A stretch of DNA of 63,482 nucleotides from a virus (IMGVR_UViG_3300000303_000014:1-63482), one strand, 5' to 3'; counted from the first letter of the stretch, positions 1 through 63,482 are shown. Translations and numbers: made by a program. Notes: generated by a model not told the origin, from the sequence alone.

Positions 1-54
1 CTTGCGCCCAACGAAGATGCACGGATAACGCTCACTGATTACATGATGGCAAAG
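1..54. repeat. Terminal direct repeat, copy 1. It is identical to 63429..63482 and is most simply an assembly overlap of a circular or circularly permuted genome.
   Basis: The first 54 nt (cttgcgcccaacgaag...atgatggcaaag) recur exactly as the last 54 nt. The long + strand reading frame is continuous across the junction. Confidence 0.9.
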
Positions 55-2706: not shown

Positions 2707-2787
2707 TTAAACAGCCCTTGATACTTGGAATGGCTACTTTTGCATCAGGCGAGAGCCACTTCCAAGCATCATAAAAAACGAAACGAT

Positions 2788-4761: not shown

Positions 4762-4787
4762 ATGACTAACAATAAACAAATAACGAT

Positions 4788-5252: not shown

Positions 5253-5255
5253 GCG

Positions 5256-5293: not shown

Positions 5294-5422
5294 ACTGCAA
5301 TCTGTAATCAGTTACGATTCTTTGTACGTTTCTTGTTCGTTGTTTGTTGCTTGCCTACACCGGCCACCTGATACGTGGCAATAGGGTCATTCGTTAAAGT
5401 CCGTATGCCCTCCAAGTTCTGT

Positions 5423-5779: not shown

Positions 5780-5799
5780 AATGTTAAAGTATTAAATGT

Positions 5800-8794: not shown

Positions 8795-8814
8795 AATACA
8801 GTTTATCTATGTTT

Positions 8815-8822
8815 CAAAATTA
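8815..8822 (-). promoter_or_regulatory. Candidate Bacteroidetes -7 promoter box (TAATTTTG on the - strand) for the packaging operon
   Basis: It matches the TAnnTTTG consensus about 20 nt upstream of the ATG at 8794. Confidence 0.35.
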
Positions 8823-8869
8823 GCGATTGGAGCGTAAAAAGTTATACCTCGCCAATTGGTTTGTTAGCC

Positions 8870-8877
8870 TAAATTTG
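8870..8877 (+). promoter_or_regulatory. Candidate Bacteroidetes -7 promoter box (TAAATTTG) for the head and tail operon
   Basis: It matches TAnnTTTG about 38 nt upstream of the ATG at 8916. No convincing -33 TTTG was seen. Confidence 0.35.
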
Positions 8878-8915
8878 CAATGTGACAAATCGCAAAACAA
8901 TTAAAAATCAAGAAT

Positions 8916-9704: not shown

Positions 9705-9739
9705 GTTAAGAATTAAAAGTTAAGAGTGAAGAATGAAGA
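9705..9739 (+). repeat. Five tandem heptamers (gttaaga attaaaa gttaaga gtgaaga atgaaga) starting right after the stop codon
   Basis: Read directly from the sequence. The same element follows the TAA stops at 23797 and 24340. Confidence 0.7.
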
Positions 9740-9770
9740 ATTTATAAACAACAATTAAAACCCCAAAAAG

Positions 9771-20203: not shown

Positions 20204-20318
20204 TCGTGGTACTCACTTTGGCGGCAATGCGAACGAGAGTAATGCCGCCCTCCGTTACGCGAATTGCAACAATTCGCCCTCGAATGCGAACACGAACATC
20301 GGTTCCAGCTTACGTGTG
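20204..20318 (+). repeat. DGR template repeat (TR)
   Basis: A noncoding copy of the VR that would read RGTHFGGNANESNAALRYANCNNSPSNANTNIGSSLRV, rich in AAT/AAC codons. It lies 210 nt upstream of the RT gene. Confidence 0.9.
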
Positions 20319-47713: not shown

Positions 47714-48214
47714 ATGATAAGTTTTAACAGATATATGGGATTAATAGGCAGTGCATTAGGAGCCGTCGGCAGTATCTTCGGCGGCATATCGGCATCGAAA
47801 GCGATGAAGAAGGCGAAGAAGAACGTAGAGCAGCAGATTCAGAAGAATCAGGACTGGTACGACCGGAGGTATAACGAGGATGCCACGCAGAGGGCAGACG
47901 CGCAACGCATCCTGACGATGACGGAGGAGAGCATAAAGAACCGCAACCGCCAGGCGGCAGGAACTCAGGCCGTCATGGGTGGCACTGACGAGAGCACGGC
48001 GGCGGCGAAAGCGGCCAACAACCAAGCATTGGCAGACGCAACGGCGCAGATTGCCGTGAACGGAGAGCAGAGGAAAGACCAGATAGAGCAGCAATACCTG
48101 CAACGTGACGCAGACTTGCAGAACCAGTTGCAGCAACTTGAAATAGGCAAGGCACAGGCCATATCGGGAGCCGTGCAGGGTGTAACACAGGCGGCTTCGC
48201 AGTTGCCGTTCTAA
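47714..48214 (+). CDS. Glycine-zipper membrane or internal virion protein (hypothetical)
   Basis: GLIGSALGAVGSIFGGISAS at the N-terminus is followed by a Q/A-rich helical region. It is the first gene of the operon containing the giant ORF. Confidence 0.65.
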   Translation: MISFNRYMGLIGSALGAVGSIFGGISASKAMKKAKKNVEQQIQKNQDWYDRRYNEDATQRADAQRILTMTEESIKNRNRQAAGTQAVMGGTDESTAAAKAANNQALADATAQIAVNGEQRKDQIEQQYLQRDADLQNQLQQLEIGKAQAISGAVQGVTQAASQLPF

Positions 48215-48229
48215 CCAAAGGAGGATACT

Positions 48230-49297
48230 ATGGCGACAACGATAGAAAACATATTGGGTGGTGGAAAGAAGCCGACGGCACAGACACCTCCGGCAACTTC
48301 CCCACCGCCCACACCGGATAAGGAGAGGCTGAAAATCTCGGATGAGGAGAAAAAAGGTGTTTCTCCGGCACAGGCCATGCCGACAACGAAGCAGACCGAA
48401 CCACCCCAGCAGCCTAAGAGGATGAGCTACGAGGATATGTTCAAGAAACTCAATCCGTACCAGCCTCCGACTGAGCAGGAACTTGAAAAGGAACGGAAGA
48501 AACAGCGGAGGGAGCAGATATTCGCCGCCATAGGCGACGGCATATCGGCACTATCAAACCTTTTCTTCACCACGCAATATGCGCCGAACATGTATTCAGG
48601 ACGGAATACGGCATCACAGCGGACAAGGGAACGTTGGGACAAGCTCGCAGCCGAACGCAACGCCAACATGACGGCCTACATCAACGGAGTGATGAGGGCT
48701 CGTCAGGCAGATGAAGAATACAACGCTAATGAACGTGCATGGGAGCGGCAGCTTGGTCTTGACAAAATCAAGCAGGAACGTGACAAGGCGGCTGACGCAC
48801 GCGCCGAAGCCAAAGAGAAACGCGATGCGGAAATGCACGACCTTAACAAGCAGCTCATGGACAATAAAATTACCCAAGCGGAATATGATGCAAAGAAAGC
48901 CGAGGTCGAAGCGAAGTATGCGCCGCAGCTCGAAGAAAGCAAAATCGGGCGCAACAGGGCGGCCGCAAGCGCATCGAGGGCACGCGCGAGGTACTACGAC
49001 AACGGAGGAAGCTCCGGCAACCGGTATTACGGCGAGTTCCAAGGCAAGAAGTACAAGACACAGGCGGACTATGAGAAAGCCGTGCTGGATGCCGCAAGGG
49101 ACGCAGGGGTTGACATCTACGACACCGAAGTAACCGAACGGAACTACAAAGGAGAGCCGAGGAAACAGCGCAGAGTGAAACGTTCCATAGCCGCCATTGC
49201 GGCAGAAGTAGACGAAAAGACCAACCAGTTCAACGTGGAAGATTACAGACGCGGAGGCGGCACGAGACAAGAGAACAGCGCACCTCCATTAAACTGA
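48230..49297 (+). CDS. Highly charged coiled-coil protein (hypothetical internal or ejection protein)
   Basis: A 355-aa ORF, K/E/R-rich, preceded by aaaggagga. Confidence 0.7.
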   Translation: MATTIENILGGGKKPTAQTPPATSPPPTPDKERLKISDEEKKGVSPAQAMPTTKQTEPPQQPKRMSYEDMFKKLNPYQPPTEQELEKERKKQRREQIFAAIGDGISALSNLFFTTQYAPNMYSGRNTASQRTRERWDKLAAERNANMTAYINGVMRARQADEEYNANERAWERQLGLDKIKQERDKAADARAEAKEKRDAEMHDLNKQLMDNKITQAEYDAKKAEVEAKYAPQLEESKIGRNRAAASASRARARYYDNGGSSGNRYYGEFQGKKYKTQADYEKAVLDAARDAGVDIYDTEVTERNYKGEPRKQRRVKRSIAAIAAEVDEKTNQFNVEDYRRGGGTRQENSAPPLN

Positions 49298-49304
49298 CAG
49301 CATT

Positions 49305-52300
49305 ATGCCAAACAAGATAACATACACCATTACCACCTCGGACGGCAAAAGCCACCAAGTAAGCGAGGAAAACATTAACAAGTACGGTATGCAGTCGTAT
49401 GCGTCCGCATACAAGGGCGCAACCATCCGTATGCGCGACAAGGACGGCGCGGACTATGACATACCGCTGGGCAACTATGACGACGCACAGCGTCAGGGAT
49501 TGCACCCGTTCCGTTTCAATCATACCCCGGACAATACAGACATCCGACAGGAACGTGAGCCGCAAGAAACGCAGAATACACAGACGCAGGAGCAAAAGCC
49601 GTGGAAACCGACGGCGCAGCAGAGAGCCGTTATGACGGCCAACTTGGAGGGAATCAGCCGTTCGGCACAGCGCACAATGGAAGACTTCAACGAGCGCATG
49701 GACAACTTGCAGGAATACGGCAAGCGTTTCGGAGGCGGTCAGACGGTGAGCGGCGGTTTACGGTTCAATCCCGGCACCAAGAAGATGGAGCGCACCTACC
49801 TCACCCCAACCGGCGACCGCACTTTCAACAAGGGGGCAGCGGATAAGGTGAGCCGTGAATACAGGGAAGCCGTGGACACGACCGTCGGAGGACAAATACG
49901 CCGTGCGCAGCGCAGACTTGAGGAATTGCAGGAAAAGGCACGCCAACGCCAGCAGGAGATACACGACAAATGGGAGCAGGACTACACGAACAACAAAGCT
50001 CCGCTTGCAGCCGTGCTTGCTGCTGACACCTACGTTCCCTCGTTCGACAGCGACCAGACTTATAGAGCCTTGCAAGTGGCCATCCGTCAGACGCAAGAGC
50101 AGCTAAAGACCCTGCAAGAGCAGCAAGACCGTGACAACGGTGTGGACGTGGGCTTTTGGCGCGGCTTCGGACGTGCCGCAGGCGACATCCGTTCGTGGGA
50201 CTTCGGCATTGGCGACATGAAGGACGCACTGACCATGCTACGTGCATCGGATGACAAACACGGTCTGCCACCGACAGATCAGGAAAAGGAAGCCAATCAG
50301 GAAATGTTGAAGGCCATACACGAGAACCAGCAGACGGAAGCCATGTATGGAGGCAACGCCAGCTTTTGGAACAGGGCGGGCATGATGACCGGCTACATGC
50401 CCTCGTTCATGGTGGACTTCGCACTAACCGGCGGAGGCTTCGAGGGCATCAACTTGGCCACGAGAGCGGCAGGGAAAGCGGCCACCAAGATGTTGGGCAA
50501 GGAAGCAGTCAAGGAAATGGCCGAACAGGGATTCAAGATGTATGTGAAACGCAACGGCCTGAAAGGTCTTGGTCAGGAAGCCGCCAACTGGACGGTGAAG
50601 GCTTTGGGAACAACGGCCGACGAACTGCTGATACGTGCCCCGCTGATGACCAACACCGTGCAACTGGGCGACACGGCAGCTGACATCATAGACCGCAAGC
50701 TCGGCGACGTGGAGGTTGACGAGAACGGGAACTACGATTTCACCAATGACAAAACTTGGGGCAGTGCCGTTTGGCAGGGAGAAGCCAATTCCATTATTGA
50801 GAATTATTCTGAAATGTTCGGTACGCACTTGCCCGAAGCGGCATCGCTGGAAAACCTCGGCAGACTGGCCAACGTGATAGGCGCAAAGCGGTTGAGCGGC
50901 GTGTTGTCACGAGCCAATGCAGGAGCGTTGGGCGGAATAACGGACACCACACGCAGGATATTCGGGCAAATGGGCGTGAGCGACTATCTGGGCGAGGTGT
51001 CGGAGGAATACTACGGCCAGTTGTGGCGCACTATGCTCAACCTTGATGACGCATACCAGCAGAACGCCGACGGCACACGCACCAACCTGTTTGCCACCGG
51101 GCAGTTCCACGGCGACATTTGGGGAGGCATGGCCTTGTCGATGGGATTGATGGGCGCAGGAAAGGCCACGTTGAGCGGTGCCAATTACTTGGCTATGAAG
51201 CACGACGTGAACAAGGCAGACGCACGGGCAGGCGAGCTTCTTACTCCCGAAATATGGGAGCCGCTGCGCAGCACCATAGACATGGCCACCAACGACAACG
51301 TGGGCGACGTGGCCGAAACCATCATTAACGATAAGGAACTGACCAATGAGGAGAAAGCAGCCGTGATGAACTATATGGAGCGGTCGCTGTATCTCCGTGG
51401 GGCGAACCTTTCCGAGCTGGTAAACTCCCGTGGCGGTGTACAGGACGAGAGGAAGCAACAGGCCAACGACAGCTACATTGACGGCTACAACGCACAATCG
51501 GGCGAGGAAATGCAGGATGCCCGGAACATGTACGAATTGCAGCGGCAGAAAGCGGAACAAGCGTTATCTCCCGAAATGCTTGCGGAGATAGACGCAGACC
51601 CGATTGGCGCATTGCAAGACCTTGTGGATGATTCGGAAGCCGGTCAGACCGCCATTGACTATATCAACGCCAAACAGGTGTATGACGGCATGATACAGCG
51701 TGTGCGCGATGACATTGACAGCCGCATCGACCAAAGCAACGCGATGATAGACAGCCGTGTGAACCGTGCAAGCGGCATGATACAGGGCGCAACGATGAAA
51801 GTTCAGAACGATGATGGAAAAGACAGGCGCGTGTATGTGCTGGACGGCAATCTTGCCACATTGCCTGACGGCGCGGGCATTGACCATGAGAACTCGGACG
51901 GAAGCATCATCATACGTGATGCGGATACGGGCGCAATAGAAATGGTTTCTCCCGATGCCATATTCAGCGTTGAGCAGCCTATTGACCCTGAAACGGAGAA
52001 GATGACGGCAGCGGAAGCCATCCGCCAGCAGTTCGCAGCGGAAGCGGCTGGACGTATAGACGGTGTTGTGGCGTTCAATCCGGGCGACACGTACACCTTG
52101 ACCGATGAGAACGGTCAGGCGGTACAGATACAGATTATGGCCAACCAAGACGGACTTGTCGATAACGGTGACGGCACGGTGAACGTAAGTTCAGACGGCG
52201 GACAGACCATTGTTCCCATGTCAAAAGAGGACATTCAGGCAATGGTGGACGCCACCAACAGGGCGAGAGTGGCTCGGTTGGAAGAGGAACGCGGGACAAT

Positions 52301-55300
52301 ACGGACACAACAGCCAACGTACAGCCTGAATGAAGAAATCACCATTACGGACGAGAACGGAAACACCGTGAGAGGAAGCATCACCGCAGATGCCAACGAG
52401 GACGGCCAATATGAGGTCTATACGGAAGCACCTATAAACGGCAGGAAAGTAAACCTGTTTACGGCAGAGGAGCTTGACAGGCTCCGGGCTGTTTCTGATG
52501 AAAATTTTCAGCAGAACGGAGAGGGAGCCATGGAAAACGGCAACAATGGTGCTGAAAATATTCCGCAGAATGGCAACATTGAGCCGCAAAATATTCCAGC
52601 ACCAACAGAAACCTTGCAAGTTGACGGGGAAACCTTGCAAGAAAACTTGCAAGCCGGTACCGATGGAGCATCGGCTCTCGAACGAATCCCGAAAGACGAG
52701 CAGGGGCAACCACTGTATGAGCAGGCCGACCCTGAAACGGCGTGGGATGCCATCGTTGAGCAAACGGAAGGTGACGAGGCTATGGCACAGAGCGTGGCCG
52801 ACAGCATGGTAGCCGATAAGGAAGCCGAATTGAAGAAGATTGAGAAGGTGAAGCCAAAAACCGGAACGACCATTGCAGAGAAGATTGCGGCCGAGCGTGA
52901 GCGGAAGAACGCCGTGGAACAGGCTAAAGCCAACCTTGCCTTGTGGCAGAAGATAGCGCAGACCTCCCAGCGCAGGAAGCAAGCCGCACTTGCCGAACAG
53001 TCGAAAGCAGCCGAGGAAGCCGCACGGCTTCGCCGGGCAGAGGAAGAAAAGCTCCGTGCCGAGCGTGAGGAAGCCGAACGCATACGCAGGGAGGCATTGA
53101 ACGGTGTGCCCGATTTCGTGGAAGATACGCCGCAGGACGCAAGGGCGAGAGGCTTCCGCAGGGTAAACGGCAACAAGGTTGACCGCCAACAGGCCATACC
53201 GACAAGGCAGGGCAACGAGGTTCAGGTGAAGTTTGATGACAACAACATACCAACCGGGCATGTCAGCCTGATTGACGCATCACAGTTGCAGCCGAGCCAC
53301 ATCAACGGACAGCGCAACCCCCTGCACTTCATTGACGAGGCGCAACCCAAAGAGCGCAATGACGAGGCAAGCGTCATGTCGGCACGTAAGATTGCGGCCA
53401 ACATACGCCCGGAGGAGATCACCTCGTCCGTTACGGCTTACACTGGCGCACCCACGGTGAACACGCGCGGCGAGGTGATACAAGGAAACAACCGCAGTGC
53501 GGCTTTGCGTGAAATGTGGGCGGAGCATCCCGAACAGGCGACGAAGTACAAGCAATACCTGACGGAACACGCCGCAGACTTCGGACTGGCACCCGAAGAT
53601 GTGGAAGCTATGCAGCAGCCTGTGCTGGTGAATATGGTAGACGTACCTGACGATGAAGCCATCAGCCTTGGACAGTTCGTTGCGCAGGACACCGAGAGCG
53701 GTGGAACAGAGCGCATCAAGCCGAAAAACATCGTTCAGAAAATGGGCGATGATATGAAAGGCTTTGCCGGACGGTTGCTTGCCTCGCCCGATGAGGAAAT
53801 GACATTCTCTGAATTGGTGGACCGCAATGGCATGGACGTATTGAAGTGGATGCAGGCAAAGAATTACATCACCCCAACACAGTACCGTAGCGCGTTCGAC
53901 AGCAAAGGCAATCTTACCGGCGAGGCCAAGAATGACCTTAAAGGCATAATGTATCAGAGTATTTTCCAAAATGGAAACACCCATTTGGAGGAAATGTTCG
54001 GCGCATTGCCTGCAAAGGCGCAGAAAGCGATACTGGCTACGGCGTACAGGGACTATGACAGCCCGAACTCTGAGCGCATGAACGCCGAACTGCAAGCTTC
54101 GATAAACGCATACTACGCCTTGTCGCAAATGCCCGACTTTGCAAATGCCAAGAACTACAAGGAGGCACGCAAGGCGGCAGAGGCATGGAAAAGGCAACTG
54201 TCTTTTGACGATGTTACCGGCGAAAGCTATCTTCCTTCAGAAAGATACAGTAACTTTGCGCTGTTGTTGGCCACAATGTACAAAGGGCAGACGCAAGTAT
54301 TCATACAGAATACACTGAAAAACATCTTTGACCTTGTACAAGGCACGAAAGAGGCTACCCTTTTTGAAGAGCCTAACAACACGCCGCGCACACTGGTAGA
54401 GGCTGTGAACGAGACGATGAACGGCCTTAGTGACGAATTATTGTTAAACGAGAATTTTATATACAATGGACAACGGAGAAATAATGTATTGGCTGGCGGT
54501 AGTGCAGCAGGCCAACAAGGGAGACAAGGAAGCGGTGGAGGTACTCCGTCAGGAGAACGAGTTGAGGGCGGAGACGGCACAGCCGACCGTCCAGGAGGAA
54601 CTGGAAGCGGTAGCACAGAGGAAGAAATAGAACGCCGTGAAGCGGAACTGGCTTCACGAGTAGAGGTAAGTGATGATGACTGGCAAGAGGGAGACAATGA
54701 AAAGCCGACCTACAAACGGAGCATCCTCATTGACGGCAAACATACCGCCACGCAAGTGGACCAACCCGACAAGGACGGTCATTATACCGGTTCCTATTTC
54801 GAGTTTGACAACAAGCGGTTTGGCGACATTGCCGAAATCGTCGATTACATAGACAGCGGCCATACGCTCGCCTCGAAGATTGCCCAAGCGGAAGCGGAAA
54901 CCGATACGGAGCCTACCGAAGCTCAGAAAGAGGCGGGCAATTACAAGAAAGGCCATGTGCGCATCGGTCAGTTCGACATCACCGTAGAGAATCCGAAAGG
55001 AAGTGTGCGCCGTGGAACGGATGCCAGCGGCAAAGCGTGGGAACAGACGATGCAGAACACCTACGGCTACATCCGTGGCACGGAAGGCGTGGACGGCGAC
55101 CATATCGACGTGTTCCTGACGAACGACATAGACGGCTGGAACGGCAGACGTGTTTATATCATTGACCAGTACAACGAGGACGGTACGTTTGACGAGCACA
55201 AGGTGATGCTGGGGTTCAACGATGAGGCAGACGCACAGGACGCTTATCTTTCCAACTATGAAAAGGGCTGGAGCTTCAAGCACAAGCTCGTCCTGTCCTC

Positions 55301-58300
55301 GGTCAACCTACCCGACTTCGAGAATTGGATTAACAGCAGCCACAGAAAGACAAAGCCGTTTGCGGAATACAAGAGCGTGAATAAGGCGGATGTGTCCAAT
55401 GAGCCGAATGTGCCGGAGGCTGGATTTGAGATTGCACCTGCACAGTACACCACAAAGCGTGGCAAGGTGCTTGACATGTTCCTTGTGACCTTCGCAGAAC
55501 CATTGAGCAAAGAACAACAACGGGCGGCAAGGGAACTTGCAAAGGCAGAAAAAGGCTGGTATGACCGCGACAAGGGAGGCTTCATGATGCGCAGCGAGGA
55601 AAGTGCATGTAAGTTGGCCGACACAATAACCGGCAACGAAGAAGCCGTGAGCGACGCACAACCGTTGTCGCTTGCAGACACCCGGAAGTTGGAAGAGCCT
55701 GTGATGAGGCAGGTGGATGTTGAGGGACTGATGCAGGAGATACACGAGAAGGGTGAAGCCAAGCTGAGCGACCATTTTGTGCCACAATCGGAACAGAACG
55801 AGGGAACAACACCGGATGCGGATAAAGTAGTGGATGACTTTCGTGATTCTACCTTTGGAAAGGGAATGAGTATTGAAGACTATTTGGAGACCGTTTCAGA
55901 TGTAGCACTCGATGTGTTAGAGGAAGCATATAAAGATAACAACAACATAACAGCAGCCATCGAGCAGGAGAAGTGGTTCAGAAAAAACAATGCACGAAGA
56001 GACACAAAACCGCAGCAAGTGAACATTGAGGGTTTGGTTGACGACCTGCGCGAGAGCGGGGAAGCCAAGCTGAGCGACCATTTTGTACCACAACCGGAAC
56101 AGAAAGAGGAAAACTATACGCAAAAAACAGAAAATTCGGAACAGGAAGAGGGAAACGCTTACGGTGCGAGCAACAAACTCGTTAGTCGTGAGCGATACGA
56201 GCAACTGAAAGCAAGGATGCGTAATAAGCTCGGCGGTCAGTTGAACATGGGCATTGACCCTGAAATACTGGCCATCGGTACGGAAATGGCCGCATACCAC
56301 ATTGAAGCCGGAGCGAGGAAGTTTGCCGACTATGCCACGCACATGATTGCAGATTTGGGCGATGCCATACGTCCTTATCTCAAATCGTTCTATAATGGCG
56401 CGAGGGATTTGCCCGAAGTACAGGAATCCGGCCTTGCTGGTGAAATGACCGCGTATGACGAAGTGCGCACGTTTGACGTGGCAAACTTCGACAAAGGACA
56501 TTCGGACGCTTTGGCCACCGCTGAAATGGTGGTGCAAGAGCAGGAAGCGGACAAACAGGCGGACGAAGCCAAGGAGAAACTAATCAACCAACGTAATGAA
56601 CAAAGGAGAAAAGAAGATGAACAGACAACAGCAGATACGACAGCTATTGCAAGCAAAGCAGAGGCTGTTGCAAGCAAAGCAGAAAGCGACATCGAAGCTG
56701 CAGCAACTGAGCAGCAAGTAAACAATGCCGTCGAAAGCATAGACAAGCAACTTGAAGAAGTCAACAAGCAGCTTGCGTTGCTCGGTTATTATGAGGCAGA
56801 GCCGGTTGAGAGCGACTTTAACGAGGCATACGGCTACATGCGCAATGCCGAGAAGAAAGCCGTTAAGGACGCGAACAACCTTGCCAAACGCCTTGTGAAC
56901 GATTTGGGCATTGACCCGAATAAGATTGTCGATAAGAAAGGCAAGAAGCGAAGGAGCATAGCCACGGCGAACATCGCCCCGGCAGGAGGCGAAATTTCCA
57001 TTTATCTGCCCTTGTCAAGTGAAGCCAACCTTTATCTGTCAATAGGTTTGGCACCCACATACGATCGAAAAGCCTCGACACCGTTAATAAACAGAGGCAA
57101 AGGCGGACGTTGGGAAGGTGACAATCTTGAAGTGGAACACATCATGTACCGTATTGAGCAGCCAAATTCAAACGGCAGTGAACGATATGGAAGTAACAAC
57201 TTTGCAGATACGGATGTGACTTATTCTGATTTACTGAAAGACATACGGAGAATATCTAAAAAGTATCTTCCCATAAAAGAGGAAGCAAAAGAGGAAAGCG
57301 GAGAGAAAAACAAGCCGAAAGATGCTAAGAATAAGAAAAAATCAGTATCTTCGCAAACGCAGGTAGCCGATTTGTTCGGAGGGCTGTTTGAGGAAAATGC
57401 AAGCACGGAAACCGTTGCGAGCCAAGGCAACGAACTTAACCGAAAATTCGCAATGACGGTTAAGGATGACATGCTTGCAGCCCTTGACAATGGCACGAAG
57501 CCGTATCGGAGCATATTGGACTTGCGCAAACGTGCAAGCGGTCTTGGCATGGAAGTGGACAATGACGGGCGCACCGACATCCTGCTTCAGGAGCTTGTGG
57601 AGGACGGATTGGTGAGAGCTGCCCGTGAAGTGGCGGAACGTCACGGCAGCGACAGCAGGGAAACCTACGACCTTATCTGCAAACTGTATGAAATGCAGCC
57701 CACCATTGCCGCACGGAGCAGCAACCGCATCAAGATGCAGCAATACTCCACCCCATTGCCCATGGCATGGAACGCGTCCAGATTCGTCATGACCGGGAAG
57801 AAAGACGGGAAAGTGCTGGAGCCGACAGCCGGAAACGGTATGTTGGTATTCGCCATACCGGCAGGACAAGTACACGCCAACGAACTTGACGGCACACGGT
57901 TGGCCAACCTGCGCGAACAAGGCTTTGCACAGGTGACGCAGCAGGATGCCACAGAGCCGTTCGAGGGTGGAGAGCAGTATGACGTGGTGATAGCCAATCC
58001 TCCTTTTGGGAGGCGGGAAGCCGTGGACTATGACGGAAAGCTGATAAGCGGTCTTGACCCACAGATAACGCTCAATGCTCTTGCCAGCATGAAAGATGAC
58101 GGACGTGCGGCCATCATCATTGGCGGAAATATGGGATATGGTGCCAATGGAGCCATAAACAATATGAAGCCTTTCTTCACTTACCTGTACGACCACTACA
58201 ATGTGAAAGGCGTGGTGGATATGGACGGGAGCCTGTATGCCAAGCAGGGTACGACCTATCCCACTCGAATGATACTGATAGACGGACGGAGAAGTGATGA

Positions 58301-61300
58301 GGAACGGGCGCAGAGTGCCGTATATCCGCCTGTGCAAAGCAAGGCCATCCGTAAGGCTGACAGCTTTGAAGCACTTTATGACATCATTGACGAAGTAATC
58401 AACTCAAAGGACAAGACAAATGGAACAGAAATTTTACGTAGCCAGCAAGGGCAACTCGTATCTGTCACTGACAAACCATCCCGGAACACTGACGGAAAGG
58501 GACATCGTGAACAACCTCGAACGAATGATGACGCTCGAAGCAGAGGAAGAGAGCGAAGAAATAAACCCGAAAACAATTCAGGAAGAAGCCAACAGGTTTT
58601 ACCAAGAGAACGTAGAGAGGATAATCGAAATGGTGAAACCCGGAACGAAGTTAGTGGAAATACCGCAGGAGGAAGCCGAGGAGTATCAGAACCTGACGTT
58701 CAGAGAGTGGGAGCAGTGGGAGCTTCCACGGAACGAGTGGGATTAATCCCCCAAAGGACAACAGAACAACCGAAGAAACGCACCCTTACAGAAGAAAAGA
58801 GTGCGTATAGGCCACACAACAGTGCTTTTTCCCTGCAAAGCGTAGCCCCTGCCGCCATGGTGGAGGCAATGGACCGTGTGCTGTCACAAATCGAAGAAAA
58901 GCATGGGAGCATAGATGAATTTGTCAGAAAAGAACTTGGCTATGATACGATAGATGAAGCTCATCAAGCCCTTGCCGCAGAACAAATAGACAGCGTGGCA
59001 ATGGCCATTTATCAGATGAAGCAAGGCCAAGCACTTATCATCGGTGACCAAACAGGCGTGGGAAAAGGCCGTCAGATGGCCGCACTTATCCGTTGGGCTG
59101 TAAAACGTGGAGAAAAGCCCATATTCATTACCCAAAAAGCAGACCTGTTTTCCGATATTTACCGTGATTTAGTAGATATAGGCAGCGGCGACCTTGTTCC
59201 TTTCATTTTCAATTCGGACGGAGCAATGGTTGACAGTAACGGAAATACAGTACACAAGCCTCTCTCATCCAAAGAAATGGCAAAAGTATTTGCCACAGGG
59301 GTATTGCCTGATGAATATGATTTTGCCGTCCTTACCTATTCGCAAGTGAACACTGGCGATGAAGTAAGCCAAAAGGAAATGGAGGAAGCCGCCAAAAAGA
59401 ACGGTGCCCGTTCAAAGAAAAGCAAGAACGTAAAAAGCGGGAAAGCCACTCCCAAAGCTACCTTCTTACGTGCCATTGCCGAGGACAACTACCTGTTTCT
59501 TGACGAGAGCCACACCGCAGCAGGTTCGAGCAATACTGGCGCATACTTGCAAAGCATCCTCCGCAGTGCGAAAGCGGCCACATTCGCCAGTGCGACTTTC
59601 GCCAAGCGCCCTGACACCATGCCCCTATACGCCATACGGACGGCCATGAGCCAAGCCAAGGTTGAACCCGACAAGCTGATAAGCATCATCGAGAAAGGCG
59701 GCGTGACCTTGCAGGAGATTATGAGCCGCGAGCTTACCAATGCCGGGCAGATGGTACGCAGGGAGCGTGACATGAGCGATGTCGTGACCGATTGGAAAAC
59801 CATAAACGACCCTGAAACCGTCAGGCGAGCAAGAGAGAACTACGACCGTACGATTGCTGCATTCAACGCCATTATCAAATTCCAGGAGGATTATGTCAAG
59901 CCGATGGTTGACGCAATGGATAAGGAGCTTGCGGTGATGGCAGAGAGTGCGGGTATTAAGAGGGGTACGGATAAAATGGGTGTAGAGAACGTTCCGTTTG
60001 CCAGCAAGACCTACAACTACACCAAGCAACTTATGCTTGCCCTTAAAGTGGATGCCATAGCCAATGAAGTGGATGCTGAAATAAAGGCTGGCAGACATCC
60101 GGTCATTGCGTTGGAAAGTACGATGGAAAGCAGTATCAAGGACTATTCCGCAGGAGAAGTCATTGCAGAGCCTACCTTCAGCGCAAGTTTGCTTAGAGGT
60201 CTTGACACCGTGATGCAATATACCATCAAGGACGAGAACGGAAAAGAACAGCATGCGCGTTACTCTCCTAAGCAGTTAGGTTCAGCCGGGGAGAAAGCCT
60301 ACTATGAATTGCAGGACTTCATCCGTGAGAGCACCAGCGACATTTTCATCAGTCCACTTGATGCCATTATTGAACGGTTGCACGATATGGGGTATAAGGT
60401 CGGTGAGCTGACCGGACGCAACTTGTACGTGGAGCGTGACAGTGAAGGCCGTGTAGTGGTGAAACGCAGGACAGACAAAGACAAAAAGAGGATGCAGCGC
60501 GAGTTCAACAATGGTGAGCTTGACGTGCTCATCCTCAACAAGTCCGCCTCGACCGGCATCAGCCTGCACGCATCTGAGAAGTTCAGCGACCAGCGTCAGC
60601 GGACGATGATCATCGCCCAGCCACTCAGCGACATCAACGACTATATGCAGATGATTGGCCGTATAGACCGCACAGGACAGGTACATAGGGGATATTATAT
60701 CAACCTCGGTTTGCCTGTACCGGCAGAAAACCGTTTTCTGATGATGCTGTCCACCAAGCTGAAATCGCTGAATGCCAACACAACCACCTCACAGGACAGC
60801 GAAAGCAACGAAGTGGAAGCTCCCGACCTTCTGAACAAATACGGTAGCCAAGTGGTTGTGGAATACCTGCGTGACAATCCTGACATATACGATAAGATGG
60901 GCACACCTTTGAAAAAAGGAGGGGAAGGCGGCGGACGTGTGCAAACCAGCGAGCTTGACGAGTATAAACCGCAAGAGGATGACGCACGTAAGATTACCGG
61001 TTACGTTGCTTTGCTGACCACTCAAGAGCAGGAAGAATTTTATGATGATGTGGTAAGGCGGTATAATGAACTCATCAAGTACCTGAACGACACGGGGAAC
61101 AATGATTTGAAGATAACCGTCATGCCGCTACGTGCCAAGACGTTGGAAAAACGTGTGTCATCTGAAGGAATAGACCCGACCGGTGCCAACCCCTTTGCAC
61201 AAAACTCATACGTTGAGCAGGTTGAAATGGATGTGTTGCGCAAGCCGATGAAAGCAGCCGAGATACGCAAGACTATTGAACAGGTCAATAAAGGGAAACG

Positions 61301-63482
61301 TCCGGAGGATTATATACGCCAAGTCATTTCTACCATTGAAAAGGAGGACGAGGCAAGAATTGCCGCAGAGGAAGCCCGTTATGAGCGGTCAAAGGTAAGG
61401 GCGCAGGAAGATATTGCCAAGCAGACCGAGAAAATCAACCGCCAGCAGAAACGTACCGCCGAAGAAAAGCAAGCCGCCATTGCCGACTACGTGAGAGAGA
61501 CCAATGAGAATGTGGAAACCAAGCATAACGACAACATAGTGCGCCTCAATACGAACAGCGATATGCTGAAACAGCGTCTGCACATGTTTGAAGTCGGGAA
61601 GTCGTACCTCATGCCTGACAATCTTGAAAGCATGGTGTTCGATTTTTCCACGCCAGCCATATTCTGCGGCTACAAAGCAAAGGACAGCAAGATAACCGCC
61701 TCGACCACGCTTGCCGTATTTGCGACCCTTGACGGACGCAGACGTGTTGAAGTCAAACTATCCGATATAGCGGCACTGCGAAGCATCTACAAGACAACCA
61801 ATGACAATTGGGATGCCGCACGTTCCACCACGCTTGAAAACTGGGACAGCCAAATACCGACAGGCACACGAAAGACCGGCTATATCATGACAGGGAACAT
61901 CCTGCAAGCCATTGCCGACACCCAAGACGAAAGAGGAGGTTTCCCCGGCCAGCTTATCAGTTACACCGACATTGACGGGAACGTGCATGACGGCATATTG
62001 ATGCCCGACAAATGGAACAGGTCTATGTTGAAAACCAGCGGTGCGCCCATCATCAGCCGTATCAAACAGATAAAAGATTATATGCCTGTAGCCAGCCATG
62101 ACGGTAAAGTGGAGATTACAGGCAGCAGTTGGGCGAAAATGTATTACCTGACCGTGCCCAAGACGAAAAAAGACGGTGCTGTTTATTACGAGAACAAGAC
62201 GTTGCTTCGTTCCGTCAATGGCGGGAACTTCTATCCTTACCGTGGGAAGTTGCGTGCGGACATTCCGGCAGAGCATATTGAAAGCGTGGTAAAGGAGTTG
62301 TCAAAGTTGGGCGTAAAGGTACAGGAAGAGGATAAAGAGGATGACGTTATGCTTCGTAACGGAAATGGCGCACTGACTGATGATGACTTGGCCAATGCAA
62401 ATGACCCTATGTCCAAGTTGCTGGGCAAGTCCACGAGGACGGCACGGCAGCGAAAGGCATTCGCCGAGCGTGAACGTGGTCGCATGGTGGAACGTGTACG
62501 AGAGCTTGCCGAAACGCTGCATCTTGACAACGTGGACATCGTAACCGATGCGTCCACGTTGCAAGGCAACCGGGCAAAGGCCAAAGGCTTCTATTCACGC
62601 AGTACAGGACGCATTACGATAGTTATACCGAATCAAACGAGCGTGTTCGATGCGGAACAGACACTGCTGCATGAAGCCGTGGCCCACTACGGACTTCGTG
62701 AGTTGTTCGGCGAGCATTTCGACACGTTCCTTGATAACGTGTTCCAAAATGCCGATACGGATGTGCGCAGACACATTGTAGAGCTGGCAGAACGGCGCGG
62801 TTGGGATTTCAGGACGGCCACTGAGGAATACTTGGCATCATTGGCCGAGAATACGAATTTCGAGAACGTTAATGCAAGCTGGTGGAGCAAGATAAAGGAA
62901 CTGTTCCTACGGATGCTCCACAAGATAGGCTTTGAGGACTTCTCCGGCGTAACCTTGTCGGACAATGAACTCCGCTATATCTTGTGGCGCAGCTACGAGA
63001 ACCTTGCAGAGCCAGGAAGATACCGCAGCATCTTAGGGGAAGCCGCAGACGTGGCCAAACAGCATGAGTTAAAGGTCGGGAACTACGCCGTTGTAAGCAG
63101 TGAGGGCAGAAATGTTGCCGACAATGACCTTTACAGGGACGGCGCACCCGAAGTGCATGAACGTGTGTATGCCCGTAGGCGTTATGAAGAAATGGTAAAA
63201 CGTGGAATGTACCAAGTGCAGGAGGCATTGCAAGACAGTATGCTCGGACTTCGAGAAGCCATGAACGCCATTCTTCGTGGAGAAGGTAAGAAAAAGGTGA
63301 ATATCGAGGACGTGGACGGCTTCGAGAACGCCTACTTAGGAGAAAACAGGTTGTCTTCGGTCAACAAGGCCGAAGCGGACGCTTTCGCCCACCTGCTGTT
63401 TAAGCCGCTGCTGGACGAAGTGGCCAAACTTGCGCCCAACGAAGATGCACGGATAACGCTCACTGATTACATGATGGCAAAG
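49305..63482 (+). CDS. Giant polyvalent protein, N-terminal 4,726 codons within the window. The ORF continues through the junction to 2706, for about 5,609 aa in total.
   Basis: It starts at the first ATG after an in-frame TAA at 49290. None of the + strand ORFs the track lists between 49305 and the window end lies in this frame, consistent with a frame that runs off the end without a stop. I hand-translated several segments and they are coding. All long antisense ORFs in this span are shadows. Confidence 0.85.
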   Translation, partial: MPNKITYTITTSDGKSHQVSEENINKYGMQSYASAYKGATIRMRDKDGADYDIPLGNYDDAQRQGLHPFRFNHTPDNTDIRQEREPQETQNTQTQEQKPWKPTAQQRAVMTANLEGISRSAQRTMEDFNERMDNLQEYGKRFGGGQTVSGGLRFNPGTKKMERTYLTPTGDRTFNKGAADKVSREYREAVDTTVGGQIRRAQRRLEELQEKARQRQQEIHDKWEQDYTNNKAPLAAVLAADTYVPSFDSDQTYRALQVAIRQTQEQLKTLQEQQDRDNGVDVGFWRGFGRAAGDIRSWDFGIGDMKDALTMLRASDDKHGLPPTDQEKEANQEMLKAIHENQQTEAMYGGNASFWNRAGMMTGYMPSFMVDFALTGGGFEGINLATRAAGKAATKMLGKEAVKEMAEQGFKMYVKRNGLKGLGQEAANWTVKALGTTADELLIRAPLMTNTVQLGDTAADIIDRKLGDVEVDENGNYDFTNDKTWGSAVWQGEANSIIENYSEMFGTHLPEAASLENLGRLANVIGAKRLSGVLSRANAGALGGITDTTRRIFGQMGVSDYLGEVSEEYYGQLWRTMLNLDDAYQQNADGTRTNLFATGQFHGDIWGGMALSMGLMGAGKATLSGANYLAMKHDVNKADARAGELLTPEIWEPLRSTIDMATNDNVGDVAETIINDKELTNEEKAAVMNYMERSLYLRGANLSELVNSRGGVQDERKQQANDSYIDGYNAQSGEEMQDARNMYELQRQKAEQALSPEMLAEIDADPIGALQDLVDDSEAGQTAIDYINAKQVYDGMIQRVRDDIDSRIDQSNAMIDSRVNRASGMIQGATMKVQNDDGKDRRVYVLDGNLATLPDGAGIDHENSDGSIIIRDADTGAIEMVSPDAIFSVEQPIDPETEKMTAAEAIRQQFAAEAAGRIDGVVAFNPGDTYTLTDENGQAVQIQIMANQDGLVDNGDGTVNVSSDGGQTIVPMSKEDIQAMVDATNRARVARLEEERGTIRTQQPTYSLNEEITITDENGNTVRGSITADANEDGQYEVYTEAPINGRKVNLFTAEELDRLRAVSDENFQQNGEGAMENGNNGAENIPQNGNIEPQNIPAPTETLQVDGETLQENLQAGTDGASALERIPKDEQGQPLYEQADPETAWDAIVEQTEGDEAMAQSVADSMVADKEAELKKIEKVKPKTGTTIAEKIAAERERKNAVEQAKANLALWQKIAQTSQRRKQAALAEQSKAAEEAARLRRAEEEKLRAEREEAERIRREALNGVPDFVEDTPQDARARGFRRVNGNKVDRQQAIPTRQGNEVQVKFDDNNIPTGHVSLIDASQLQPSHINGQRNPLHFIDEAQPKERNDEASVMSARKIAANIRPEEITSSVTAYTGAPTVNTRGEVIQGNNRSAALREMWAEHPEQATKYKQYLTEHAADFGLAPEDVEAMQQPVLVNMVDVPDDEAISLGQFVAQDTESGGTERIKPKNIVQKMGDDMKGFAGRLLASPDEEMTFSELVDRNGMDVLKWMQAKNYITPTQYRSAFDSKGNLTGEAKNDLKGIMYQSIFQNGNTHLEEMFGALPAKAQKAILATAYRDYDSPNSERMNAELQASINAYYALSQMPDFANAKNYKEARKAAEAWKRQLSFDDVTGESYLPSERYSNFALLLATMYKGQTQVFIQNTLKNIFDLVQGTKEATLFEEPNNTPRTLVEAVNETMNGLSDELLLNENFIYNGQRRNNVLAGGSAAGQQGRQGSGGGTPSGERVEGGDGTADRPGGTGSGSTEEEIERREAELASRVEVSDDDWQEGDNEKPTYKRSILIDGKHTATQVDQPDKDGHYTGSYFEFDNKRFGDIAEIVDYIDSGHTLASKIAQAEAETDTEPTEAQKEAGNYKKGHVRIGQFDITVENPKGSVRRGTDASGKAWEQTMQNTYGYIRGTEGVDGDHIDVFLTNDIDGWNGRRVYIIDQYNEDGTFDEHKVMLGFNDEADAQDAYLSNYEKGWSFKHKLVLSSVNLPDFENWINSSHRKTKPFAEYKSVNKADVSNEPNVPEAGFEIAPAQYTTKRGKVLDMFLVTFAEPLSKEQQRAARELAKAEKGWYDRDKGGFMMRSEESACKLADTITGNEEAVSDAQPLSLADTRKLEEPVMRQVDVEGLMQEIHEKGEAKLSDHFVPQSEQNEGTTPDADKVVDDFRDSTFGKGMSIEDYLETVSDVALDVLEEAYKDNNNITAAIEQEKWFRKNNARRDTKPQQVNIEGLVDDLRESGEAKLSDHFVPQPEQKEENYTQKTENSEQEEGNAYGASNKLVSRERYEQLKARMRNKLGGQLNMGIDPEILAIGTEMAAYHIEAGARKFADYATHMIADLGDAIRPYLKSFYNGARDLPEVQESGLAGEMTAYDEVRTFDVANFDKGHSDALATAEMVVQEQEADKQADEAKEKLINQRNEQRRKEDEQTTADTTAIASKAEAVASKAESDIEAAATEQQVNNAVESIDKQLEEVNKQLALLGYYEAEPVESDFNEAYGYMRNAEKKAVKDANNLAKRLVNDLGIDPNKIVDKKGKKRRSIATANIAPAGGEISIYLPLSSEANLYLSIGLAPTYDRKASTPLINRGKGGRWEGDNLEVEHIMYRIEQPNSNGSERYGSNNFADTDVTYSDLLKDIRRISKKYLPIKEEAKEESGEKNKPKDAKNKKKSVSSQTQVADLFGGLFEENASTETVASQGNELNRKFAMTVKDDMLAALDNGTKPYRSILDLRKRASGLGMEVDNDGRTDILLQELVEDGLVRAAREVAERHGSDSRETYDLICKLYEMQPTIAARSSNRIKMQQYSTPLPMAWNASRFVMTGKKDGKVLEPTAGNGMLVFAIPAGQVHANELDGTRLANLREQGFAQVTQQDATEPFEGGEQYDVVIANPPFGRREAVDYDGKLISGLDPQITLNALASMKDDGRAAIIIGGNMGYGANGAINNMKPFFTYLYDHYNVKGVVDMDGSLYAKQGTTYPTRMILIDGRRSDEERAQSAVYPPVQSKAIRKADSFEALYDIIDEVINSKDKTNGTEILRSQQGQLVSVTDKPSRNTDGKGHREQPRTNDDARSRGRERRNKPENNSGRSQQVLPRERREDNRNGETRNEVSGNTAGGSRGVSEPDVQRVGAVGASTERVGLIPQRTTEQPKKRTLTEEKSAYRPHNSAFSLQSVAPAAMVEAMDRVLSQIEEKHGSIDEFVRKELGYDTIDEAHQALAAEQIDSVAMAIYQMKQGQALIIGDQTGVGKGRQMAALIRWAVKRGEKPIFITQKADLFSDIYRDLVDIGSGDLVPFIFNSDGAMVDSNGNTVHKPLSSKEMAKVFATGVLPDEYDFAVLTYSQVNTGDEVSQKEMEEAAKKNGARSKKSKNVKSGKATPKATFLRAIAEDNYLFLDESHTAAGSSNTGAYLQSILRSAKAATFASATFAKRPDTMPLYAIRTAMSQAKVEPDKLISIIEKGGVTLQEIMSRELTNAGQMVRRERDMSDVVTDWKTINDPETVRRARENYDRTIAAFNAIIKFQEDYVKPMVDAMDKELAVMAESAGIKRGTDKMGVENVPFASKTYNYTKQLMLALKVDAIANEVDAEIKAGRHPVIALESTMESSIKDYSAGEVIAEPTFSASLLRGLDTVMQYTIKDENGKEQHARYSPKQLGSAGEKAYYELQDFIRESTSDIFISPLDAIIERLHDMGYKVGELTGRNLYVERDSEGRVVVKRRTDKDKKRMQREFNNGELDVLILNKSASTGISLHASEKFSDQRQRTMIIAQPLSDINDYMQMIGRIDRTGQVHRGYYINLGLPVPAENRFLMMLSTKLKSLNANTTTSQDSESNEVEAPDLLNKYGSQVVVEYLRDNPDIYDKMGTPLKKGGEGGGRVQTSELDEYKPQEDDARKITGYVALLTTQEQEEFYDDVVRRYNELIKYLNDTGNNDLKITVMPLRAKTLEKRVSSEGIDPTGANPFAQNSYVEQVEMDVLRKPMKAAEIRKTIEQVNKGKRPEDYIRQVISTIEKEDEARIAAEEARYERSKVRAQEDIAKQTEKINRQQKRTAEEKQAAIADYVRETNENVETKHNDNIVRLNTNSDMLKQRLHMFEVGKSYLMPDNLESMVFDFSTPAIFCGYKAKDSKITASTTLAVFATLDGRRRVEVKLSDIAALRSIYKTTNDNWDAARSTTLENWDSQIPTGTRKTGYIMTGNILQAIADTQDERGGFPGQLISYTDIDGNVHDGILMPDKWNRSMLKTSGAPIISRIKQIKDYMPVASHDGKVEITGSSWAKMYYLTVPKTKKDGAVYYENKTLLRSVNGGNFYPYRGKLRADIPAEHIESVVKELSKLGVKVQEEDKEDDVMLRNGNGALTDDDLANANDPMSKLLGKSTRTARQRKAFAERERGRMVERVRELAETLHLDNVDIVTDASTLQGNRAKAKGFYSRSTGRITIVIPNQTSVFDAEQTLLHEAVAHYGLRELFGEHFDTFLDNVFQNADTDVRRHIVELAERRGWDFRTATEEYLASLAENTNFENVNASWWSKIKELFLRMLHKIGFEDFSGVTLSDNELRYILWRSYENLAEPGRYRSILGEAADVAKQHELKVGNYAVVSSEGRNVADNDLYRDGAPEVHERVYARRRYEEMVKRGMYQVQEALQDSMLGLREAMNAILRGEGKKKVNIEDVDGFENAYLGENRLSSVNKAEADAFAHLLFKPLLDEVAKLAPNEDARITLTDYMMAK
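53235..53530 (+). other. DdrB-like ParB/sulfiredoxin-superfamily domain within the giant protein
   Basis: The hand translation reads HVSLIDASQLQPSHINGQRNP...EAQPKERNDEASVMSARKIAANIRPEEITSSVTAYTGAPTVNTRGEVIQGNNRSAALREMW. It matches the LQPRDR...GAPIV...GNGR pattern of polyvalent-protein ParB domains. Confidence 0.55.
54936..55125 (+). other. Inorganic-pyrophosphatase-like module within the giant protein
   Basis: The hand translation reads GNYKKGHVRIGQFDITVENPKGSVRRGTDASGKAWEQTMQNTYGYIRGTEGVDGDHIDVFL. It resembles the family I PPase core (E.P.G...YG.IP.T...DGDP.DV). Confidence 0.4.
57740..58300 (+). other. N6-adenine DNA methyltransferase domain within the giant protein
   Basis: It carries QQYSTP, motif I VLEPTAGNG (57813..57839), and motif IV NPPF (57996..58007). 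Confidence 0.8.
58980..60700 (+). other. Strawberry-notch/SNF2-like superfamily 2 helicase domain within the giant protein
   Basis: It carries motif I GDQTGVGKGRQ (59043..59075), motif II DESH (59502..59513), and LILNKSASTGISLHA followed by QMIGRIDRTGQ (60648..60680). Confidence 0.8.
62560..62790 (+). other. Zincin-like metallopeptidase domain (polyvalent-protein type) within the giant protein
   Basis: The region reads AKGFYSRSTGRITIVIPNQTSVFDAEQTLLHEAVAHYGLRELFG. The HEAVAH motif lies at 62670..62687. Confidence 0.6.
63429..63482. repeat. Terminal direct repeat, copy 2 (identical to 1..54)
   Basis: Exact 54-nt identity with the window start. It implies a unit length of 63,428 bp. Confidence 0.9.

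Follow-up and report, generated by a model that had tools for sequence, protein, structure and literature searches.

The 63,482-nucleotide (nt) viral sequence IMGVR_UViG_3300000303_000014 (the window, by which we mean this whole stretch of DNA) carries one giant open reading frame (ORF) that accounts for 26.5% of the genome and ends next to the portal gene. This ORF is one real gene, and its product is probably a capsid-packaged, injected polyvalent protein of the phage type, combining anti-defence and ejection functions. Directly established are the ORF itself, its conservation, the identities of its domains, the exchange of cassettes among its relatives and the homology of its C-terminus to proteins found experimentally in virions.

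The window represents a 63,428-bp circle, its first and last 54 nt being identical (nt 1-54 repeat 63429-63482). From an ATG at 49305 (nearest upstream in-frame stop, TAA at 49290), the frame runs without a stop to 63482 (4,726 codons), re-enters in phase at nt 55 and terminates at a stop codon at 2704-2706. Computed on the circularised sequence, the complete ORF measures 16,830 nt and encodes 5,609 amino acids (aa) plus the stop, that is, a 627.6-kDa protein of pI 5.15 with only four cysteines, as expected from a first-pass annotation of the DNA, which had proposed an uninterrupted frame of about 5,609 codons filling over a quarter of the genome. From the base composition, the probability of 5,609 stop-free codons is ~1e-124, and the second-longest stop-to-stop frame in the genome has 1,067 codons. 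Because the ORF spans the contig ends, and because frameshifts occur in some metagenomic relatives, it might stem from misassembly, either as a chimera or through the fusion of two genes at a false circular junction. We find this scarcely conceivable: GC content at the three codon positions follows a coding-like pattern that stays uniform over the whole gene, and an isolated phage and two isolate genomes each have the same colinear ORF within a single record. In the linear GenBank record of the cultured Bacteroides phage BS-TP4, gp3 aligned as one high-scoring segment pair over aa 2660-5609, covering the junction at aa 4709-4726, and the junction is likewise crossed by prophage ORFs of Phocaeicola massiliensis DSM 17679 and P. 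coprophilus An818. Since colinear homologues cross the same point within single records, the circular junction, first read from the 54-nt overlap, is real.

The conservation of the gene extends well beyond these copies. BS-TP4 gp3 (PQ571277.1, 5,391 aa, annotated 'hypothetical protein') is the orthologue in a syntenic 64-kb temperate phage and is colinear over its full length, with 54% identity in the N-terminal half and 77% in the C-terminal half; it is 218 aa shorter, the differences falling mainly in linker or cassette regions (aa ~2440-2660), and in both phages the portal gene follows and the same diversity-generating retroelement (DGR) and integrase are present. It was reached by protein-level search only, as a megablast search of the ORF against 50,697 phage records returned nothing. 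When IMG/VR was scanned with the methylase-helicase segment, 45 loci were recovered at 62-90% identity and 44 full-length matches were analysed; where both ends of the ORF lay inside the locus, it was uninterrupted in 32 of 34 cases (4,836-6,564 aa). GTDB genomes and metagenome-assembled genomes (MAGs) provided another 12 loci where the ORF is complete; lengths range from 4,126 to 5,819 aa, and 11 of the ORFs reach 5,055 aa or more. Among them are intact prophage copies in cultured isolates, of 5,407 aa in P. massiliensis DSM 17679 (NZ_KB905472.1) and 5,528 aa in P. coprophilus An818; the BS-TP4 paper reports no chromosomal homologues by BLAST (PMC12694917). One ORF, on MAG contig CALUMB010000006.1, also has 5,609 codons, but its mosaic differs and the match in length is coincidental.

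The C-terminal end ties the protein to known virion proteins. The first-pass annotation had seen a transmembrane (TM)-like segment here and otherwise ~3.5 kb with no assignable motif; the segment stands, as a single hydrophobic helix, and the region around it is in fact a conserved module that includes this helix and an LPD38 domain. In tblastn searches, the C-terminal ~970 aa matched 360 phage records (21-26% identity over 73-85% of the query, E down to 1e-41) from Stx-converting and other Escherichia phages and from Vibrio, Ralstonia and Burkholderia phages, with genomes of ~57-68 kb except for two ~37-kb Vibrio phages among the matches listed; those of the homologues that carry an annotation are called 'DarB-like antirestriction' or 'LPD5 domain-containing protein'. 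The module also matched phrog_10089 ('DarB-like antirestriction', E 7.5e-111) and, over 881 columns, BcepMigl gp16 (4,658 aa, E 2e-38), while Foldseek against BFVD gave 54 matches (best 1.8e-39) whose labels include LT_GEWL, L,D-transpeptidase, RelA/SpoT and methylase. The LT_GEWL and L,D-transpeptidase labels on these relatives imply passage through the periplasm. The hydrophobic helix stands ~340 aa from the C-terminus in the giant protein, in BS-TP4 gp3, in the IMG/VR relatives and in BcepMigl gp16 (aa 4316-4334). By Pfam, no LPD family other than LPD38 was found at E<=0.1, including no LPD36 N-terminal to the methylase.

Two groups of proteins share this module, and in each of them one protein, JC1 gp69 or phi24B gp47, has been shown to be present in virions. 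Bcep22 gp75, JC1 gp69 and BcepMigl gp16 have in common with the giant protein a C-terminal module of ~830 aa with LPD38 and the hydrophobic helix at the same position. JC1 gp69 (4,515 aa, 22.1% of the genome) combines lytic transglycosylase (LT)-like, methylase, helicase, LPD3 and LPD38 domains; in CsCl-purified virions it was identified from 51 unique peptides, and the products of the genes just upstream, gp67 (196 aa) and gp68 (510 aa), are virion proteins as well (PMC9144972). The Bcep22-like and Ralstonia giant proteins further share a 115-aa domain and a methylase plus superfamily 2 (SF2) helicase core, take up about a fifth to a quarter of ~60-kb temperate genomes and are preceded by small virion-protein genes. 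In contrast to the giant protein of the window, they start with an LT-like domain, carry LPD3 and lack the N-terminal module, DdrB-ParB and InPase; identity in the shared module is only 22%, their helicase is annotated as COG4646/HepA-like and not Sno, and their gene closes the morphogenesis block instead of preceding the portal. In the second group, the C-terminal module of phi24B gp47 and 933W-type proteins is homologous (~25% identity over 73-80% of the last 901 aa, E ~1e-39), whereas gp47 is about half the size (2,811 aa) and has LPD5, LPD1 and MuF-C in place of ParB, InPase and the methylase-helicase. The virion proteome of phi24B contains gp47 (LPD5, LPD1, MuF-C, LPD38) in abundance, the cryo-EM map does not show it, and its authors suggest for it the role of an encapsidated ejection protein (bioRxiv 10.64898/2026.04.10.717836). 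From the homology of the C-terminal module together with the position of the gene, we infer that the giant protein would be loaded into the capsid and ejected.

Enzymatic modules lie between the two ends. Pfam places ddrB-ParB, InPase, AAA_34, Helicase_C_4 and LPD38 in the order first proposed, all above cut-off (an NCBIfam search gave no useful match), and the expected motifs are found where they had been read by hand: EPTAGNG at nt 57819, NPPF at 57996, GVGKGRQ at 59055, DESH at 59502, GRIDRTGQ at 60657 and HEAVAH at 62670. Among the five modules named in the first-pass annotation, ParB, InPase, methylase and Strawberry-notch (Sno) helicase are recovered by profile searches, the fifth, a zincin, being marked by an invariant HExxxH motif with weak profile support (see below). 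The ParB domain has an intact GNNR arginine motif (aa 1394) and is 33% identical to the N-terminus of P1 DdrB over 150 aa (E 1e-21); in the InPase (family I inorganic pyrophosphatase-like) domain, the DGDHID motif is intact (aa 1930). A domain without a name (aa 2263-2377) follows, 42% identical to BcepMigl gp16 aa 1449-1560 (E 9e-21) and present in 98% of aligned relatives. The linker that precedes it contains a ~31-residue internal repeat (..EGL..E.GEAKLSDHFVPQ.EQ..), with copies at ~55710-55802 (aa 2136-2166) and ~56019-56114 (aa 2239-2270), which was spotted by eye and is too short for BLAST self-comparison. The methylase scores just under the curated cut-offs of Pfam N6_Mtase, MTS and Eco57I, and matches PHROG methyltransferases (E 8e-8) and the PADLOC mad2 methylase (4e-12). 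The helicase is of the Sno type: both halves (AAA_34, aa 3220-3499, E 1e-16, 60.9 bits; Helicase_C_4, aa 3684-3937, E 1e-24, 87.8 bits) exceed their cut-offs, and motifs I, II and VI are intact.

Part of this combination recalls P1 DarB, as had been suggested at first sight. The functional logic holds, the ParB domain is clearly homologous to DdrB, and the methylase resembles that of DarB weakly (24% identity over 152 aa, pairwise E 7e-6, with motifs I and IV aligned); the helicase, however, is of the Sno type, and its matches to the DarB helicase are short and marginal (E 0.001-0.012). The P1 Dar proteins are anti-restriction proteins packaged in the capsid; the logic here would be the same, a methylase and a helicase entering the cell along with the DNA, and in P1, too, darB is a neighbour of the portal gene, but the P1 Dar functions are encoded by separate genes and no counterparts of DarA or Hdf were seen here. 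Judged from its domain content, with neither a DarB-type helicase nor LPD36, the giant protein falls outside the P1 DarB family in the strict sense. It belongs instead, on the same type of evidence, to the phage-type polyvalent proteins and to the LPD38-terminated group of virion proteins. The first of these assignments had been made in the first-pass annotation, and the several domains, some of them phage-restricted, and the portal context agree with it: DdrB-ParB, InPase and LPD38 are listed as phage-specific (Iyer, Burroughs, Anand, de Souza and Aravind, 2017, J Bacteriol; PMC5512222). Like the proteins described in that study, this one has many unrelated domains in one chain, a methylase-helicase dyad and a portal/terminase context, and it has a candidate metallopeptidase with a HEXXXH motif; the published proteins have 2 to 15 domains, and the lineage of the window adds an N-terminal module of ~1,300 aa without a named domain.

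The methylase-helicase segment also occurs outside phages, which bears on where the protein might act. Methylase-Sno proteins with ~30% identity over ~94% of aa 2701-3965 are encoded on 698 plasmid records, and 291 of these plasmids are conjugative. These plasmid and integrative and conjugative element proteins are free-standing (~1,200-1,300 aa) and are not fused to virion modules. Their existence, together with the indirect nature of the evidence for packaging in this lineage, would be compatible with an unpackaged cytoplasmic multi-enzyme polyprotein, active late in infection or in the lysogen, that methylates or processes progeny DNA or counters defences inside the producing cell. This we regard as distinctly improbable, because the gene sits within the head-gene block directly before the portal, its C-terminal module is common to proteins found in purified virions, and DdrB-ParB, InPase and LPD38 are reported solely in phage-type, virion-linked polyvalent proteins (PMC5512222). 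The same core might also be a prophage-borne defence (restriction-modification, DISARM- or BREX-like) shielding the lysogen from other phages, an idea to which weak, partial DrmD matches (NCBIfam E 0.005, PADLOC 6e-4) and the temperate lifestyle (integrase gene in the window) lend something. Yet PADLOC gives generic methylase models only, with no system-specific helicase or partner genes, no nuclease partner lies nearby, and the gene is inside the morphogenesis block and fused to virion-type modules; we hold a defence function to be very improbable.

Downstream of the helicase, the predicted zincin had been located correctly, and its HEAVAH motif is invariant, but its form is HExxxH and not HExxH, and profile support stays below threshold. 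Motif conservation was followed in alignments of 26 relatives (one without the segment) and, separately, of 17 relatives: HEAVAH and an ATEEYLA..LAE helix ~45 aa downstream do not vary in any of the aligned relatives in which the segment is still present. An AlphaFold2 (AF2) model of the region shows three strands, the motif helix and then the glutamate helix, the order expected of a zincin, at a predicted local distance difference test score (pLDDT) of 70-88, and Pfam Peptidase_M76 matched 7 of 18 family members weakly (best E 0.008). A HEXXXH clade is described among the metallopeptidases of polyvalent proteins (Iyer et al., 2017; PMC5512222). The domain may cut the chain into working pieces.

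The N-terminal ~3.9 kb, also left without an assignable motif at first, is not filler but a conserved module that defines the lineage and has not been described before. Its ~1,300 aa gave no match in Pfam, PHROG, NCBIfam or PDB sequences. In metagenomic proteins, however, a word-indexed search matched 80 clusters, and an exhaustive search of 1.84 billion representatives found 744 proteins at E<=1e-3, 381 of them at E<=1e-30; in nearly all of these proteins the matching region forms the N-terminus, and many of them have a length of 4,000-7,236 aa. The AF2 model of aa 1-1200 (mean pLDDT 62) is mostly helical. Foldseek best matched the small beta-barrels in it to tandem Tudor/KOW/SH3-like domains of the PDB, with E-values from 1e-3 to 0.1 and no match below 1e-3; we assign no function to the barrels.

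Relatives differ in the effector cassettes that they carry between these conserved ends, which points to exchange. In a composition scan, the modules are set apart by long polar linkers, and an alignment of 26 relatives places the breakpoints at linkers, namely aa ~1085/1112, 1775/1850, 2030, 2130-2270, 2440-2660 and ~4350. The last is a hot spot just before the zincin, where relatives carry MuF_C/PBECR nuclease, PBECR3, LPD3, LPD23 or ART-PolyVal ADP-ribosyltransferase cassettes; the giant protein of the window has no additional cassette there. Cassette exchange in polyvalent proteins has been described by Iyer et al., 2017 (PMC5512222). Tentatively, and with more doubt than belief, one could go further and see the end modules as a dedicated delivery chassis, responsible for loading into the capsid, transit through the tail and insertion into the membrane, and the ~3,000-aa middle as a swappable payload bay with a preferred insertion site before the peptidase; this would be a phage counterpart of polymorphic-toxin/Rhs delivery, in which a whole arsenal is injected as one chain and then cut.

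Several shortened homologues were encountered. In Logan contig SRR10097269_11086 (L005), the gene at 5490-11006 encodes P0024 (1,838 aa), in which an in-frame deletion joins the equivalents of aa ~394 and ~4102 and every effector module is lost. Its prophage, located beside host genes, has a split portal gene; as this prophage is decaying, we rejected P0024 as a natural 'minimal chassis', and it is no evidence that the payload is dispensable. In JGI 3300045988 Ga0495776_102373 (L003), the giant gene is shortened to 2,099 aa, with homology starting at aa ~3507, mid-helicase, and at nt ~9700-10070 it abuts opposite-strand Mu-like genes (DUF3164, AAA_22), which looks like the insertion of a transposable phage. 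The protein collection that we searched for homologues gave no hit longer than ~2,300 aa, though relatives of 5,000-7,200 aa exist in IMG/VR, GTDB and the representative library; giant phage proteins are represented in that collection by fragments only, surveys of length and architecture can be misled by this, and giant genes are easily missed or mis-annotated.

Our preferred reading, an injected anti-defence and ejection protein, would work as follows. The giant gene would be expressed together with the head genes (the small gp14-like gene, the 355-aa gene, the giant gene and the portal). The protein would enter the capsid and leave it through the portal and tail, at least partly unfolded, before or with the DNA; Casjens and colleagues have argued that very large putative ejection proteins must traverse the conduit at least partly unfolded (PMC8402733). 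The N-terminal module and the C-terminal module, with its hydrophobic helix and LPD38, may serve virion incorporation, passage and membrane insertion, leaving the middle as a set of exchangeable effectors that would work on the incoming DNA and on the host. Among these, the N6-adenine methylase and the Sno translocase could, in the way of the P1 Dar proteins, protect the entering genome against restriction by methylating or shielding it; the ParB and InPase domains may act on nucleic acids or nucleotides (Iyer et al., 2017; PMC5512222), and the HExxxH domain may release modules by cutting the chain. We infer packaging, ejection, processing and anti-restriction activity in the phage of the window.

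A number of observations weigh against this reading. Neither end module, in AF2 models of modest confidence (pLDDT 62-64), matched a solved structure at E<=1e-3, T7 gp15/gp16 and other ejection proteins included, and no lytic transglycosylase or peptidoglycan hydrolase domain was found by Pfam in the giant protein, unlike in JC1 gp69. Sequence and profile searches of the zincin region against the PDB gave no match, no profile hit to the zincin is significant, and the resemblance to P1 DarB extends to the methylase but not to the helicase. The upstream 166-aa protein matches Pfam T7_gp14 over its full length at E 0.003 and 17.9 bits, under the cut-off of 27. The frame is not always intact: two IMG/VR relatives (L029 and L045) show frame changes and an in-frame stop, and in an ENA relative (L004) a frameshift lies within the helicase, homology changing frame at L004 nt ~9878-9894. 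For L004, a gene-caller artefact was ruled out as the origin of the split into 3,600 and 2,219 aa, and the frameshift is a real mutation or an assembly error. Either the single chain is not always kept or these are assembly errors. Finally, the BS-TP4 paper neither discusses gp3 nor reports the morphology (PMC12694917).

Some of the same observations bear on another account, in which the protein is primarily a structural ejection-conduit protein, a counterpart of T7 gp16 or the P22 E-proteins: its ends and the two upstream proteins would build a trans-envelope channel, with the enzymes as secondary passengers. A trio of small gp14-like, mid-size and giant genes does stand beside the portal, each encoding one hydrophobic segment; JC1 gp67, gp68 and gp69 are in the same order and all virion-found, gp69 starting with an LT-like domain as T7 gp16 does; the authors of the phi24B study propose this role for gp47; and relatives of the C-terminal module bear the peptidoglycan-active labels mentioned above. 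The T7_gp14 model is also matched by 24 of 24 family members of the 166-aa protein at E<=0.01 (best 5.4e-7), and the protein itself matches the PHROG 'pilot protein for DNA ejection' at E 0.004. However, the family profile finds nothing in the PDB, not even T7 gp14 itself, and the upstream 166-aa and 355-aa proteins have no BLASTP similarity to the BcepMigl virion proteins at the equivalent position. The giant protein, which lacks the Pfam transglycosylase, matches neither T7 gp15/gp16 nor any other solved ejection protein in sequence or structure; a gp15/gp16-like fold for its ends is unsupported by Foldseek at the medium confidence of the models, the model of aa 4410-5609 (pLDDT 64) retrieving only generic helical repeats from the PDB (karyopherins, E>=0.1). 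N4 virion RNA polymerase and T7 gp14/gp15/gp16 are very large podovirus capsid proteins ejected into the cell, and the C-terminal part of the N4 polymerase has a metallopeptidase domain needed for encapsidation (PMC5512222); yet no sequence or fold match links the giant protein to N4 vRNAP or the T7 core, and it has no RNA polymerase domain. The link to T7-type core proteins is confined to the weakly gp14-like neighbour, and we judge a mainly structural role unlikely.

Features of the giant gene and its neighbourhood (positions are those of the window; aa, residues of the giant protein; E-values as obtained)
Feature	Residues (aa)	Position (nt)	Strand	Basis or remark
Giant ORF, first part	1-4726	49305..63482	+	Stop-free to window end
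Giant ORF, second part	4709-5609 + stop	1..2706	+	Phase kept across exact 54-nt terminal overlap; BS-TP4 gp3 and Phocaeicola prophage ORFs colinear here
N-terminal module	1-~1290	49305..53174	+	No known family; mostly helical, glycine-rich low-confidence stretches
Three to four small beta-barrels, possibly SH3/Tudor/KOW-like	~828-1053	51786..52463	+	AF2 strands; weak call
DdrB-type ParB/Srx nuclease-like domain	1320-1444	53262..53636	+	Pfam PF18763, E 1e-25
InPase domain	1872-2009	54918..55331	+	Pfam PF18823, E 2e-53, full-length match
Unnamed conserved domain	2263-2377	56091..56435	+	Common to Burkholderia phage giant protein BcepMigl gp16
N6-adenine DNA methyltransferase domain	~2811-3000	57735..58304	+	EPTAGNG (motif I), NPPF (motif IV)
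Basic, polar methylase-helicase linker, probably disordered	~3015-3175	58347..58829	+	Composition scan
Sno SF2 helicase/ATPase	3220-3937	58962..61115	+	GVGKGRQ, DESH, GRIDRTGQ
Conserved post-helicase region	~4102-4340	61608..62324	+	In all aligned relatives; retained in 1,838-aa deletion variant P0024
Cassette-insertion hot spot	~4327-4351	62283..62357	+	Alignment breakpoints; relatives with 200-700 additional residues
Zincin-like metallopeptidase candidate	4380-4600	62442..63104	+	HEAVAH (aa 4456-4461) at 62670-62687
C-terminal module, start	4637-4726	63213..63482	+	BLASTP to BcepMigl gp16 begins at aa 4637
C-terminal module, remainder	4727-5609	55..2703	+	tblastn, phrog_10089, Foldseek BFVD
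TM-like helix, then acidic run	5269-5287	1681..1737	+	Hydropathy scan; only strongly hydrophobic segment of the protein
LPD38 domain	5297-5478	1765..2310	+	Pfam PF18857, E 2e-40
P22-type portal gene		2725..4761	+	Pfam P22_portal 5.5e-42; PHROG portal 8e-104
TerL		5800-8022	-	Pfam/PHROG scan
SU10-type major capsid protein		9771-11246		Pfam/PHROG scan
Integrase		45323-46804	+	Long terminator-like hairpin follows
166-aa gene		47714..48214	+	Homologues start at M8; N-terminal hydrophobic segment, Gln-rich helical rest; weakly T7 gp14-like
355-aa gene		48230..49297	+	Charged, low complexity, one hydrophobic segment; ends 7 nt before giant ATG

On the plus strand, the order of genes is integrase, long terminator-like hairpin, 166-aa gene, 355-aa gene, giant gene and P22-type portal; the giant ORF ends 18 nt before the portal gene, next to which the first reading of the locus had placed its end. 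No terminator-like site was found between the genes from the 166-aa gene to the portal, and the 355-aa protein matched no family in Pfam or PHROG. The scanned ORFs include no recognisable tape-measure or tail-tube gene, which fits a short-tailed virion without proving it; the phage is a temperate Bacteroidales phage and probably a short-tailed one, a T=9 podovirus being the expected form.

Other genes of the window caught our attention. Directly after the portal, a 154-aa ORF (4788-5252) matches the PHROG phosphoheptose isomerase family (E 1e-23), which suggests a possible accessory function in sugar metabolism encoded within the head-gene block. A gene for a rhomboid-domain membrane protein (7893-8402, minus strand, Pfam 5e-7) shares an overlap with the 5' end of the large terminase gene. 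Both BS-TP4 (gp8) and metagenomic relatives keep it, and such a neighbour is unusual for packaging genes. The DGR is complete (19517-19631, 20204-20318 and 20529-21827): the variable repeat lies at the 3' end of a 554-aa ORF (17982-19646), the template repeat lies 687 nt downstream, 15 of 15 repeat differences fall at template adenines, and a reverse transcriptase gene follows (PHROG 5e-90). A 1,059-aa tail-fibre-like ORF (14793-17972) contains a CotH-kinase-like domain (Pfam 2e-6, over cut-off).

The class of protein, most of its domains and the proposed logic are already published (Iyer et al., 2017; JC1 gp69; phi24B gp47). New are the size, the combination of DdrB-ParB, InPase and methylase-Sno between two conserved ends, the N-terminal module, and the occurrence in prevalent temperate phages of gut Bacteroidales. 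A 2021 paper called Erwinia phage Pavtok gp27 (5,007 aa) the 'longest known phage protein' (PMC8402733); the giant protein exceeds it with 5,609 aa, and relatives reach 6,564 aa in IMG/VR and 7,236 aa among metagenomic representatives. That more than a quarter of the genome is committed to a single gene argues for a strong selective benefit at entry into defence-rich Bacteroidales hosts. Of 930 gut viromes, 31.3% were positive for BS-TP4 (PMC12694917), and its gp3, the only deposited orthologue, carries no functional label. As BS-TP4 and its host, Bacteroides salyersiae BG8, are in culture, the packaging and threading of a chain of more than 600 kDa, its possible self-cleavage and the defence targeted by each module can be tested in a gut commensal. 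Were the chassis-and-payload idea to prove true, it would apply to hundreds of 50%-identity clusters, with proteins of up to ~7,200 aa, among the most prevalent temperate phages of the human gut.

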